Virus genome (UHGV): UHGV-0045959
DNA: 23,790 bases
DNA from: a virus
Reading direction: 5' to 3' (one strand)
Shown here: piece after piece, positions 1,591 through 22,217 of the stretch
How positions within the stretch are numbered: the first letter of the stretch is position 1
How the letters are laid out: every line of letters starts with the position of its first letter
The notes under the pieces: generated by a model
Database searches by the model: none
The model's input: the letters and a program-made list of their open reading frames with translations, nothing else
What the model was told of the DNA's origin: nothing
Made by a program: the position numbers and the translations under genes

Positions 1591-1711
1591 TTGACATGGT
1601 GCCTATATAGGGACTAAATTCCCTCAAAACTGGAACCTATATAGGTTCCATTGATTTGAGAATAAACCAGCATCTAAACGGTTTTGAGTGGTTTAGAAAG
1701 GGCTGGATCCT
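1591..1711. promoter_or_regulatory. divergent early/repressor promoter-operator region (Pe/Pc-like)
   Basis: Perfect -35 hexamer TTGACA at 1591..1596 on the + strand just beyond the C start codon; 10-bp palindrome CCTATATAGG at 1602..1611 and 18-bp perfect palindrome GGAACCTATATAGGTTCC at 1632..1649. Confidence 0.6.
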
Positions 1712-1726
1712 ATGAGGGTACCATAT

Positions 1727-1999
1727 ATGGACGCTGAAAATTATGTGATTCAGTATCCGCTTGATGCGGTTCATGTGGATAAATTTGCTGATTTATTAGG
1801 GAAGCCAAAGACAGCCGTCAGTGAAATGGTGAAGGCAAATAAATTACCAATTATTGAATTGCGTGATCCTTGCAAACCGAAGGCTCGTGCCGGTGAAAAA
1901 TGGGTTTTCATTCCTGAGTTTAATCGCGCTGTACGTGAGGCGTTTTATAACCGACCGGTTGAACAGCGTGATGCATGGCTTTTGTGGATGGGGTTGTGA
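1727..1999 (+). CDS. cox: Cox-like excisionase / transcriptional regulator
   Basis: ORF 1712..1999; GAGGG Shine-Dalgarno 8 nt before the ATG at 1727 gives about 90 aa. First gene of the rightward early operon; C-terminus DAWLLWMGL as in P2 Cox. Confidence 0.75.
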   Translation: MDAENYVIQYPLDAVHVDKFADLLGKPKTAVSEMVKANKLPIIELRDPCKPKARAGEKWVFIPEFNRAVREAFYNRPVEQRDAWLLWMGL

Positions 2000-6326: not shown

Positions 6327-8810
6327 TTAACGAGGGTTTCGCGTATAGGTTTCAACTATGTCTGATGCACGTAATTTACATGTGATCAATTGTTCTCTTA
6401 TAAATATCTCATCGTGTCGTTTATCACTTGTACAAATGGCCGTGATAAAACTGAGGATAGATGCTTTAAAACGTTCAAGATCATTTATGGTCATTATTCG
6501 AGACCCTTCGTTTAGTGTTGCGGCATATTCAGGCATATTAGAGTGATGTATCATTATAGGTGTGGCGGTAGCAGTTTGATCATACATGTTTCTGAACCAT
6601 GCACCCGACCCATTTAACTGATTGCAGTCATGCTTACTTATTCTTTCTGCGGTTGCTCCATTTTTGCATTCAATTACTAGATAATTGTTTTCTCCCATTG
6701 CCCATAAATTGTCAGGTCCTTTACCTGTATCATTTTCTGGCCGTTGGCTACGAAAACCGACCAAATATGCAACTTTTTCGATAGCATCTTCGAAGGGATT
6801 CGATGTGCCCTCGGAGAAAATAAGGTTTTCTATTATTGAATTAGTATGCACAACGACTTGATTGGCCGATTCAAAATTACTTCTGAGATAGGAGCTACAT
6901 TCCCTGGCCTGTTCAAGTGCCGCACCATTAAGTCTATTATATGTTACGCCGATTAGTGGTTTTAATACCCGATAGTTATCGTTTGATGCAGACTGAAGCA
7001 ATATCTGAGCTTCAGATTTGTCATATAAGTTTACATATTCCGCAGCATGTTCTTTTAGATAACCCTTATAAACTTTGTCAGCTGTACTACTATCATTTTT
7101 TAGAGTTAAAGCGGCTTGTTGAAACATATTTCGTGATGCTAAGTCATATGCCAATCTTTTATTTATAGTATGCTGGTCAATCTGCTTATTTTCCAATGTT
7201 AAGCCAGTCAATATACCTTTGCTTTTTGAGACCCAGTCAGAATTGCGTAACAGACAATAATCAAGAGCACCTTTGATTGAATCAATAGTTGTATCCGGCA
7301 GTATCGATACCAATTGCTGTGAAAGTTGAATTTGTGCTTTCGTTGCTGGAGAAAACCTTTCTAAGGAGGAGCCAAGGAAAACAGCGCCATTTAATGCTTT
7401 GCCAAGTAAGATCACTCCGCAGAAGTCGTCGCTTGATCTCACTCCTCGCCCCATTCCTTGTTCAATTTTCTGGATAATTTCATCTTTGGTTTTTTCGCTT
7501 CCAAGCAATAAGCTTTGTGAGACTTTATCTATTAGTCTACGAACGTCAGGAAGTCCATCTATTACTAATAGACGACATGCGGTATTTGGTAAATCAATAC
7601 CATCATATCTATTAACTAGGACTACTAAGCCAACATGTTGTGTCCTTAATTCTTGTACACCTTGATAAATTGTATTTTTATCTAATATTCTGTCTGCAAC
7701 ATCTTGCCAAAATCTAGTTCTGTAATCGGATGGTACAATTACAACAACATTATGTTTGGAGGATATCTCCTTGCACATAGCTTTGATATCTACATCAGAA
7801 AGACTAGGGTTTATAACCTGAGGCATTAGTATCATTCTATCACCAATATCACCAATTGTTTTTGGTGTTATCGGATTAGAGAGTGATTCATCCGTTATTC
7901 CGAAGTGGCTCGCTAGAATGGATTCATCGACAAGAGTAGCTGTCATGAATATTTTTCTTCTTGCGTTTGATAGGCTTGGGATCATTTGGATTGGTATGCA
8001 ATGAGGTGATATCTCTATTTTGGAAGCACTTACAACGCATTTCGATAATATTAGATTGTCTTTTATTAATGGCCATTTGAAACTCAAGTCATCATGGTCT
8101 TTATTTTCTAACAAGATTGTCATTATATCATTTATGCTTTCTTGCCATTTCCAAAATGGAACTCTCACATAAGCATTTCTATCGCCGGATTTTATCTCTA
8201 GTGTTTTTGCACCAGCTTGTGTCATTAGTGAATTTTCAAAAATTCTGAATAATTTATCATAGGCAGGGTTGTTTTTTTGAATGCTAATGGAGAATTGTTC
8301 TTCAATTGAAGAAAGGCAAGCGTGAGCATCGTCAATTATTATAGAACCTATTGGTATTCTTTGTCCATCATCTCCAACGCCAAATGCAGAACGTCCATTA
8401 ACCACTTTGAATATATTTGTAACTAAAATTTCTTTACCTGCAATAAATTTGGGGGACCTCTCATCTTGAGTTACAGGTATACCAAGTTGATTAGCCTCCA
8501 AAACCACTTGCTCAACTAGATAGTTGTCAGGAACAACATATACAGCGGGACCTTCTCCTTCATTTATACAGCTTTTAAGAATGATTAACCCAACTGAAGT
8601 TTTACCGCTTCCGGTATTCATTTTTATTACATTGGTTGGGCTTCTCCTTGCTTCATACCATTTTTCCCAGACCTCTGATTGCACATCTCGAGGGTATTGA
8701 AATTTGGTGTCTTTGCTCGGTAGAGCTGTAAATATATCTCGCGGTGGAATCGCTGTGTCGCTATTTACACTGGGCGAAAGCTTGGTTAAATCAAGGAAAA
8801 AACCAGACAT
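6327..8810 (-). CDS. SF2 helicase fused to a C-terminal PD-(D/E)xK-like nuclease module; candidate single-protein anti-phage defence gene
   Basis: 827-aa ORF with GAGGA Shine-Dalgarno 7 nt upstream of the ATG. Helicase motifs in order: I MNTGSGKTS (aa 64-72), II IIIDDAH (aa 157-163), III MTATL, V YDGIDLP, VI QGMGRGVR (aa 451-458). C-terminal GPD (aa 698-700) followed 14 residues later by VIECK (aa 712-716). Markedly AT-rich compared with flanking phage genes. Confidence 0.8.
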   Translation of the reverse strand: MSGFFLDLTKLSPSVNSDTAIPPRDIFTALPSKDTKFQYPRDVQSEVWEKWYEARRSPTNVIKMNTGSGKTSVGLIILKSCINEGEGPAVYVVPDNYLVEQVVLEANQLGIPVTQDERSPKFIAGKEILVTNIFKVVNGRSAFGVGDDGQRIPIGSIIIDDAHACLSSIEEQFSISIQKNNPAYDKLFRIFENSLMTQAGAKTLEIKSGDRNAYVRVPFWKWQESINDIMTILLENKDHDDLSFKWPLIKDNLILSKCVVSASKIEISPHCIPIQMIPSLSNARRKIFMTATLVDESILASHFGITDESLSNPITPKTIGDIGDRMILMPQVINPSLSDVDIKAMCKEISSKHNVVVIVPSDYRTRFWQDVADRILDKNTIYQGVQELRTQHVGLVVLVNRYDGIDLPNTACRLLVIDGLPDVRRLIDKVSQSLLLGSEKTKDEIIQKIEQGMGRGVRSSDDFCGVILLGKALNGAVFLGSSLERFSPATKAQIQLSQQLVSILPDTTIDSIKGALDYCLLRNSDWVSKSKGILTGLTLENKQIDQHTINKRLAYDLASRNMFQQAALTLKNDSSTADKVYKGYLKEHAAEYVNLYDKSEAQILLQSASNDNYRVLKPLIGVTYNRLNGAALEQARECSSYLRSNFESANQVVVHTNSIIENLIFSEGTSNPFEDAIEKVAYLVGFRSQRPENDTGKGPDNLWAMGENNYLVIECKNGATAERISKHDCNQLNGSGAWFRNMYDQTATATPIMIHHSNMPEYAATLNEGSRIMTINDLERFKASILSFITAICTSDKRHDEIFIREQLITCKLRASDIVETYTRNPR

Positions 8811-20925: not shown

Positions 20926-22217
20926 CAGTGAAATACTACGCCATTCTGACTAATCAGGGCGCAGCACGGCTGGCTAACGCGACGATGCTTGGCAGTAAGC
21001 TGAATCTGACGCAAATGGCCGTTGGTGATGCGAATGGTGTCTTGCCGACACCAGACCCGGCACAGACAAAACTGATTAATCAGAAACGCATTGCACCGCT
21101 GAATCTTCTGAGTGTTGACCCGAACAACCAGAGCCAGATTATTGCGGAGCAAATCATCCCTGAGAACGAGGGCGGATTCTGGATCCGTGAGATTGGGCTT
21201 TATGATGATGAAGGCGTACTCATTGCGGTGGCCAACTGCCCGGAAACGTACAAACCGCAGTTACAGGAAGGCAGTGGTCGTACCCAGACTATCCGCATGA
21301 TTCTGGTTGTCACGAATATCGAAGCCATCACGCTGAAAATCGACCCGTCGGTGGTACTGGCGACCCGTAAATATGTGGATGATGAAGTCCTGGAATTAAG
21401 GCTGTATGTGGATGACCAGATGAGAAACCACATTGCCGCACAGGATCCTCATACCCAGTATGCACAGAAACATAATCCGACATTTACCGGAGAACCAAAA
21501 GCCCCGACGCCTGCCGCAGGAAATAACACCACGCGGATTGCGACCACTGAGTTTGTTCAGGCCGCTATTACCGCTCTGATTAACGGCGCGCCAGCCACGC
21601 TGGACACACTGAAAGAAATTGCCGCAGCCATTAACAATGACCCGAAATTCAGCACCACTATTAACAATGCGCTGTCAGGTAAGCAGCCACTGGATGAGAC
21701 GCTGACTCATTTGAGCGGAAAGGATGTTGCCGGCCTTCTCGCATACCTTGGTTTGGGAGAAACGATAAATAGAGCCTCCAGAGCTATGCAGAAATCGGCT
21801 AATGGATCTGATATTTCTGATGTATCAGCCTTCCGAAATGCGCTCCAGTTAGGGACCGCTGCAACACGAGATGTTGGAGCAGATAATGCCTCGAAGTTAC
21901 TGGATTTAGACAGCTTCAGGTCAATGATGTCAGGTAATGGCTACATCTACATTCCATGCATTGCGACGACAGGAAACCCGGTGAAACTTATGTTGCAGTG
22001 GGGAACGGTGGCAACACAAAAGGGAGCTGATGCTGGATATGCCTTACCATTTGCTTTTCCCTATGCAGGCTTGTTTGCGACCGGAAACCGTGGAACATCT
22101 GGCTACAATGCCGCGATGAATGTGCGTATTGCCAGCAGAACGCATATCAGTATTCAGAACTGGTCGCCATCCGGAGAGGGCACCGAAGATTGTTGTTTTA
22201 TCGCGCTGGGGTATTAA
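20922..22217 (+). CDS. H: tail fibre protein (gpH-like): constant N-terminal part plus currently expressed variable C-terminal tip
   Basis: 431 aa with a conserved phage tail-fibre N-terminus (MTVKYYAILTNQGAARLANA...FWIREIGLYDDEGVLIAVAN); the C-terminal 150 aa lie inside the invertible segment. Shorter than P2 gpH. Confidence 0.88.
   Translation: MTVKYYAILTNQGAARLANATMLGSKLNLTQMAVGDANGVLPTPDPAQTKLINQKRIAPLNLLSVDPNNQSQIIAEQIIPENEGGFWIREIGLYDDEGVLIAVANCPETYKPQLQEGSGRTQTIRMILVVTNIEAITLKIDPSVVLATRKYVDDEVLELRLYVDDQMRNHIAAQDPHTQYAQKHNPTFTGEPKAPTPAAGNNTTRIATTEFVQAAITALINGAPATLDTLKEIAAAINNDPKFSTTINNALSGKQPLDETLTHLSGKDVAGLLAYLGLGETINRASRAMQKSANGSDISDVSAFRNALQLGTAATRDVGADNASKLLDLDSFRSMMSGNGYIYIPCIATTGNPVKLMLQWGTVATQKGADAGYALPFAFPYAGLFATGNRGTSGYNAAMNVRIASRTHISIQNWSPSGEGTEDCCFIALGY
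21736..21761. other. left recombination (crossover) site of the invertible tail-fibre segment (gix/cix/hix-like)
   Basis: 26-bp TTCTCGCATACC-TT-GGTTTGGGAGAA with imperfect dyad symmetry; its reverse complement matches the first 14 bp of the right site and 20 of 26 positions of the hix-type consensus as I recall it. Lies inside H at codons 272-280 (LLAYLGLGE). Confidence 0.7.

Follow-up and report, generated by a model that had tools for sequence, protein, structure and literature searches.

P2, P2 Hy dis, and WPhi are the only three phages for which operators of P2-type C repressors have been mapped (PMC1904268). In P2, the operator is composed of 8-bp sites located 22 bp apart, measured from centre to centre, which flank the −10 motif; in P2 Hy dis, 8-bp sites 26 bp apart flank the −35 motif (PMC1904268); and in WPhi, the 10-bp sites O1 and O2, 34 bp apart, flank the −10 motif of Pe (PMC1904268, PMC1904263). 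Single half-site mutations in WPhi and P2 kept repression, and double mutations abolished or strongly reduced it (PMC1904268). All seven P2-type classes seem to recognise direct repeats (PMC2995052). The crystal structure of P2 C revealed a symmetric dimer that resembles palindrome-binding proteins, with the DNA-binding helices 26 Å apart, and the reading of a non-palindromic 8-mer by such a dimer is an acknowledged puzzle (PMC2995052). Candidates for base-specific contacts of P2 C are the four poorly conserved residues Y31, S35, Y36, and R41 (PMC2995052).

The window, which is the whole stretch of 23,790 nucleotides analysed here (virus genome UHGV-0045959), starts with the early-control region of a P2-like (Peduovirus) prophage. 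The leftward genes int and C and the rightward genes cox, B, and A are arranged in the P2 gene order, matching the annotated records of WPhi and L-413C, and orf78-, B-, and A-like genes are located downstream of cox (Table 1). The C protein aligned over its whole length with the P2 C protein (PDB 2L49/2XCJ; phmmer E value of 1.9e-21) and matched the Pfam model HTH_3. It was 100% identical to C of L-413C, 66% to that of P37, and 56% to that of WPhi, and shared 42 of 97 residues (about 43%, counted by eye from the alignment) with P2 C. In the alignment, the positions of Y31, S35, Y36, and R41 of P2 C are occupied by L29, K33, K34, and N39. The indicated start of cox follows the RefSeq annotation of identical prophages, with an in-frame ATG at position 1712 as an alternative. 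Two other identities were considered and rejected. A switch of the 186 CI or lambda CI type did not agree with the size of the repressor, its full-length alignment with P2 C, or the P2 gene order. Identity with P2 Hy dis was rejected for the sites of the window flank the −10 and not the −35 motif, and C of the window is about 43% identical to P2 C while the value for Hy dis C is 63% (PMC1904268).

Table 1. Coordinates of genes, promoter motifs, and palindromes in the early-control region of the window
Feature	Position	Strand	Description and evidence
int	247-1257	−	same strand as C, after C
C immunity repressor gene	1297-1590	−	97 aa, helix-turn-helix; ORF list, phmmer, Pfam
Pe −35 motif TTGACA	1591-1596	+	promoter scan; aligns with WPhi Pe
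Predicted O1, 10-bp palindromic core CCTATATAGG	1602-1611		within the Pe spacer
Pe −10 motif TAAATT	1615-1620	+	promoter scan
Predicted O2, perfect 20-bp palindrome TGGAACCTATATAGGTTCCA	1631-1650		core CCTATATAGG at 1636-1645
Third CC-W6-GG palindrome CCATATATGG	1721-1730		overlaps the cox ATG and adjoins the candidate Pc −10 motif
cox, first gene of the early operon	1727-1999	+	Pfam Phage_Cox PF10743, E value of 1e-23

With its 18-bp spacer and matches at 10 of 12 positions, Pe was the sole sigma-70-like site between positions 1200 and 2100. The −35 motif directly adjoins the start codon of C (CAT at 1588-1590). The sequence CATTTGACA at this junction was kept in nearly all spacers of the other classes, and the counterpart of the −10 motif there reads TATATT or TAAATT. 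The usual 7-nt distance to the −10 motif predicts a Pe start at about 1626-1628, and relative to this predicted start O2 would be located at about +4 to +24 and O1 at about −26 to −17. The 10-mer CCTATATAGG occurs in exactly two copies in 23.8 kb, centred at 1606.5 and 1640.5, which flank the Pe −10 motif at a distance of 34 bp. As the 10-mer equals its own reverse complement, these copies can be read both as direct and as inverted repeats. O2 reads AACC-TATATA-GGTT and O1 reads TGCC-TATATA-GGGA, with the common layout of NNCC, a six-base AT-rich centre, and GGNN. A longer arm of O1, ATGGTGCCTATATAGG (1596-1611), is 88% complementary to positions 1636-1651. The flanks of O1 (GGTG.../...GGAC) match the arms of O2 poorly, and C may therefore recognise a unit of less than 20 bp. 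Two repeated sites flanking the Pe −10 motif agree with a P2-type operator; the description of P2-family sites as non-palindromic direct repeats does not apply, as both cores are perfectly palindromic and the palindrome extends to 20 bp at O2.

The original prediction had reported the 18-bp palindrome GGAACCTATATAGGTTCC at positions 1632-1649, where it is indeed located, but its full extent is 20 bp, from 1631 to 1650. A second copy of the core had been placed at 1602-1611 within the spacer of a TTGACA promoter, and both its position and its overlap with the spacer were correct. The picture of one palindromic operator plus an extra copy of its core had to be replaced: the cores are better read as O1 and O2, which together would make up a single bipartite operator. 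The sites had also been assigned to the region between the divergent genes C and cox. These genes are divergent, yet the promoters Pe and Pc face each other in the P2 family (PMC1904268), and the two transcripts of WPhi overlap by 82 nt (PMC1904263).

Evaluation of the palindromes needs to consider what may be expected by chance. By our own estimate, the exact 10-mer should appear about 0.02 times in 23.8 kb, and two copies were found. When up to two mismatches were allowed, there was just one further site, at position 22060, compared to 4.2 expected. The pattern CCWWWWWWGG was present three times in 23.8 kb, all inside 1602-1730 (at 1602, 1636, and 1721), versus an expectation of 1.22, and at least three matches appeared in 13% of the shuffles. 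When the window was simulated by a first-order Markov model, 8% of the runs gave a perfect palindrome of 18 bp or more. The length of a palindrome is by itself weak evidence, and the non-random part of the observation is the duplication together with the position.

The cores of the window align column for column with the repeats TATTGGTGAC of WPhi. Because the cores fall on these repeats with the equal 34-bp spacing, and because the flanking CATTTGACA and the −10 motif are conserved, O1 and O2 are positional homologues of O1 and O2 of WPhi; 10-bp sites, 34 bp from centre to centre and on both sides of the −10 motif, are the geometry of WPhi. In WPhi (class III), as in the window, one site is located in the spacer and the other one just past the start, and CATTTGACA forms the junction with the C start codon. 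In contrast, the WPhi site is a non-palindromic direct repeat, whereas that of the window is self-complementary and extended to 20 bp at O2, and WPhi has 16 additional bp between O2 and cox. WPhi and the window class are presumably heteroimmune. P2 (class I; 2XCJ) shares with the window a homologous C protein, a bipartite operator flanking the Pe −10 motif, and the gene order; its half-sites differ in length (8 bp), in spacing (22 bp), and in being non-palindromic (GTTTAGAT at O1).

The two CCTATATAGG palindromes are thus predicted to be O1 and O2, the bipartite operator of the P2-type C repressor, to which we assign a probability of roughly 0.85. This assignment is supported by position, geometry, covariation with the repressor, conservation, and the pattern of mutations in lytic isolates. 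That the palindromes are repressor operators at the immunity switch, as had been proposed, is very probably right in view of the positions of O1 and O2 in WPhi and the covariation with C. A distinct immunity specificity had been proposed as well, and it agrees with the differences of the window from P2, WPhi, and P2 Hy dis in the repressor (42 of 97 residues shared with P2 C, 56% identity with WPhi C) and in the operator sequences. The argument that led from palindromy to this distinct specificity does not hold, since specificity is set by the sequences of repressor and operator, and the two copies also form a direct repeat with WPhi geometry. A paired-operator switch is ordinary and common; the modest twist is that these sites are palindromic although non-palindromic direct repeats are described as the targets of this family.

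We infer that C binds to O1 and O2, and also the stoichiometry and cooperativity of this binding. C bound to O1 in the Pe spacer and to O2 just past the predicted start would exclude RNA polymerase from Pe, and this shut-off would leave cox and the replication genes silent. Each palindrome would take one symmetric C dimer, which would contact the outer NNCC/GGNN bases across the AT-rich TATATA centre in the way of the 434 and P22 c2 repressors. The two dimers, about three helical turns apart, would cooperate, and repression would be lost only when both sites are damaged. One dimer per palindrome is favoured because each site is a dyad with a layout like that of the 434 and P22 c2 operators, and the palindromy fits a single symmetric C dimer at each site. 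In 434, P22 c2, and the C protein of Esp1396I, a dimeric helix-turn-helix protein is likewise positioned on a dyad of 14 to 20 bp with short outer half-sites and an AT-rich centre, and Esp1396I C binds as one dimer per palindrome to directly repeated palindromes (PMC2995052). These systems differ from the window by other protein families, another spacing (15 bp in Esp1396I), and the absence of a face-to-face promoter switch, and the likeness appears to be one of mechanism only.

The region from 1250 to 2050 (801 bases) matched ten phage isolates at 99.1 to 99.9% identity: the “P2” prophage of E. coli O157:H43 T22; the Salmonella phages MET_P1_103_31 and FSL SP-004; P24B2; P2_AC1; vB_EcoM-569R9; the Yersinia phages vB_YpM_50, HQ103, and L-413C; and phage R18C. 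L-413C, R18C, and the “P2” prophage of O157:H43 T22 belong to the class of the window, with an identical C protein and a switch region of 99.3 to 99.9% identity. The 131-bp intergenic stretch was present in 420 of 5,426 complete E. coli genomes (7.7%), in one copy each and always on the chromosome. This indicates that the window class is not new but an already sequenced, common P2-type immunity class (L-413C type). No operator mapping for this class was found in the literature searched. The assignment provides a testable operator for a very common immunity class of E. coli prophages, and the palindromy and the natural double operator mutants described below are small but useful additions. The 60-bp stretch containing Pe, O1, and O2 was exactly conserved in 315 of the 420 E. 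coli prophages. Variant positions were 1598 and 1619-1621, outside the cores, in a sample of 5 of the 105 variant prophages.

Roughly one in four of the 420 E. coli copies deviates at one or more positions of this 60-bp promoter-operator stretch. Several prophages (L093, L095, L097, and L009, with changes at 1619-1621) carry T1620C, which converts the −10 motif from TAAATT to TAAATC with loss of the conserved last T. Such variant copies may be promoter-down, poorly inducible prophages.

A scan of IMG/VR yielded 80 loci with 35 distinct C proteins, which together with WPhi formed 21 classes at 90% identity. All 21 classes keep the promoter frame, and each possesses its own repeats at the positions of O1 and O2. 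Among the 16 classes with a recognisable cox, the O1-O2 segment covaried with residues 1 to 60 of C (Spearman rho of 0.72) and less with Cox (0.32), and the module to the right of O2 did not follow C (0.01); these values are descriptive only since the underlying pairs are not independent. P37 provides an individual example: its Cox is 88%, its right-hand module 74%, and its C (residues 1 to 60) 48% identical to the window, and its repeats at the O1 and O2 positions, TTAATGAC and GTCATTAA, are unrelated to those of the window. In the IMG/VR loci L040, L050, L076, and L079, the first early gene is an unrelated ORF of 61 to 136 aa in place of the 90-aa Cox, which suggests replacement of the cox module or insertion of a gene.

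Comparison of 44 distinct sequences of the class with the window revealed that two isolates with a lytic or virulent life style carry substitutions within both palindromes, unlike the window with its wild-type prophage sites. R18C contains G1610T in the O1 core and C1636T in the O2 core, and L-413C contains C1602A in O1 and C1648A in the arm of O2. A metagenome-derived contig showed a change of only the outermost base of O2, at 1650. No further changes were located within the O1 core or the O2 palindrome in the 44 sequences, and O1 was intact in the 42 others. The C protein of R18C and L-413C is wild-type. R18C has been published as a virulent P2-like phage in a paper that mentions neither repressor nor operator (PMC6823313), and L-413C is a lytic clear-plaque mutant of the temperate phage L-413 (PMC2893161, PMC3448106). 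The private differences of R18C within the 801 bp were just these two, one per core, and the chance of two private hits with one in each core is about (20/801)^2 = 6e-4 by our own estimate. None of the four substitutions G1610T, C1636T, C1602A, and C1648A was present in the 420 E. coli genomes, where probes with the mutant pairs reached 96.7% identity at best (two mismatches). Inspection by eye gave no indication that G1610T creates an extended −10 motif or a new promoter in R18C. L-413C also carries T1619C in the −10 motif, a change seen in at least one prophage.

The operator substitutions probably explain the lytic or virulent behaviour of R18C and L-413C; the link between operator change and lytic growth is only correlational because the parent phages of both are unsequenced. 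As a correlation, the double hits mirror the half-site experiments with WPhi and P2, and they are the strongest functional evidence short of wet work: the need to damage both sites was tested in WPhi, and the natural double mutants suggest the same for the window class. Because R18C is mutated at core position 9 of 10 in O1, a right-half position, and at core position 1 of 10 in O2, a left-half position, both halves of a site seem to count. Double operator hits with an intact repressor would be a simple genetic explanation for lytic growth of the plague-diagnostic phage L-413C and of R18C, and this bears on the diagnostic and therapeutic use of both phages. Another route to lytic growth in the same class is the 7-bp frameshift deletion in C of HQ103, isolated on Y. 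pestis, which is equivalent to positions 1425-1431 and truncates the repressor.

For the mode of recognition, there is a live alternative to one dimer per palindrome. C may recognise direct repeats, with the palindromy being incidental or an evolutionary leftover. P2 C has been modelled as a reader of direct repeats (PMC2995052), the sites of WPhi are direct repeats, and the close sister classes L042, L044, and L046 (C 82 to 85% identical to that of the window, with the same recognition helix LSTLKKYE) possess clean direct repeats, ATGGAACCTATATGT(GT), with asymmetric right halves. On the other hand, a perfect 20-bp palindrome at O2 plus a perfect 10-bp palindrome at O1 makes incidental palindromy unlikely, and the mutations of R18C in opposite halves of the cores, both of which appear to matter, do not agree with it. 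Classes with the recognition helix ..STL(K/A)KYE.. have CCTAT-type sites in common; L040, L048, L050, and the window exhibit CC-W6-GG dyads at both positions, 32 to 34 bp apart, with the core CCTATATAGG of the window also present in O2 of the L048-type class. The two 15-bp sites of L040 (C 86% identical) form an inverted pair, which argues that orientation is not the conserved trait. Classes with ..LKNYEGGH.. contain mostly inverted repeats (P37, L052, L075, and L079), with direct ones in WPhi and L078. Of the 21 classes, which have WPhi-like geometry, about 7 had direct and about 7 inverted sites, and 2 had self-palindromic ones, at a fixed position and spacing, with the inverted signal coming in part from the conserved frame GGTTCC...GAC / GTC...GGAACC. 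This preliminary survey points to a site orientation that varies across the family while position and spacing are conserved. Recognition of direct repeats by C is, all in all, rather unlikely for the window class.

A bolder proposal goes beyond the assignment of O1 and O2 and is offered tentatively, with the odds somewhat against it. The C proteins of the P2 family may not be intrinsic readers of direct repeats, but each dimer may be positioned on a 14- to 20-bp dyad or pseudodyad, of which the window class would represent the undegenerated form; the substitutions in R18C and L-413C would then be natural virulence-type operator mutations that explain the lytic growth of these widely used phages. 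The mix of direct, inverted, and self-palindromic sites among the 21 classes speaks for this proposal. If true, it would answer how the symmetric P2 C dimer of the crystal reads its sites. A co-structure of C with DNA could settle how a symmetric dimer of this family reads its target, and the perfect symmetry of the site makes it the best substrate for that purpose.

Instead of a protein site, O2 could mainly be an RNA stem-loop with a function in stability, attenuation, or termination, located either in the C mRNA leader or at the 5' terminus of the early transcript from Pe. A scan flagged 1631-1650 as terminator-like, with 8 pairs (4 of them G-C), a 4-nt loop, and the tail TTGATTTGAG; the O2 palindrome folds as a hairpin in both transcripts, and the region of Pe/Pc overlap folded better than shuffles on both strands (z of −2.1 and −3.5); and an 8- to 10-bp inverted repeat with some compensatory change brackets O2 in most classes. 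The T-run, however, is poor for a terminator, and O2 is located immediately after the predicted Pe start. The RNAalifold consensus around O2 was weak (−1.19 kcal/mol), the majority of the other classes, WPhi, P37, and L052 among them, lack self-complementarity in the O2 core, and Rfam returned no family match. An RNA function would leave unexplained the O1 copy, which is upstream of the Pe start and has no flanking symmetry, as well as the O1 changes in both lytic isolates. A main function as RNA is therefore improbable; a secondary RNA role of O2 is possible, and an RNA hairpin could contribute to its extended symmetry.

That the palindromes are sites for Cox, IHF, or another host protein and not for C, the outcome named in the original prediction as speaking against operators, is highly improbable: P2 Cox is a DNA-binding repressor acting in this intergenic region (PMC3936717, PMC1904268), but the O1-O2 segment covaries with C more than with Cox, P37 combines a closely related Cox and right-hand module with unrelated repeats, C and Cox of P2 and WPhi use different operators that each overlap the promoter controlled (PMC1904268), and Cox controls Pc, which is further to the right (PMC1904268), with O2 of WPhi 60 nt from the Pc start (PMC1904263).

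The promoter scan of 1200-2100 found no leftward consensus promoter. By analogy with the 82-nt overlap in WPhi (PMC1904263), the Pc start would be located near 1705-1712, and at 1720-1715 the minus strand has a conserved TAnnCT (TACCCT) which, read by eye, is a weak candidate for the Pc −10 motif. The third palindrome is 85 bp from the O2 centre and differs from the core in all six inner bases. It was considered as an auxiliary C site and judged to be probably due to chance, with no counterpart in the sister CC-W6-GG classes and in view of the frequency of three matches in shuffles; a function as a weak autoregulatory C site is doubtful.

Two further inverted repeats were observed in this region. 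The repeat bracketing O2 is located at 1623-1660 in the window and present in nearly all classes (L001, L003, and L040-L082), for instance as AAAAGG..CCTTTT, CATTGG..CCAATG, or TTGGTGG..CCATCAA, with one pair split into 11 A-U and 11 U-A; it would form a stem at the extreme 5' end of the early transcript. The second repeat, at 1667-1706 between O2 and cox, is composed of CCAGC (1667-1671) and GCTGG (1702-1706) with the inner pair TCTAAAC/GTTTAGA, and it folds in both transcripts. Its arms change in a compensating manner, with CCAGTCCC/GGGACTGG in WPhi-like, CCAACCGC/GCGGTTGG in L045-like sequences, and ACACCTT/AAGGTGT in L067. An RNA stem formed where the Pe and Pc transcripts overlap is one possible function, and a protein site that is linked to the cox module is another.

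Outside the control region, a low-GC gene (33 to 38%) follows gene A at 6327-8810 on the minus strand, in the slot where P2 carries accessory genes. Its helicase-like product (ResIII/DEAD) of 827 aa is a full-length match to the PADLOC candidate defence family PDC-S28, with 1055 bits.
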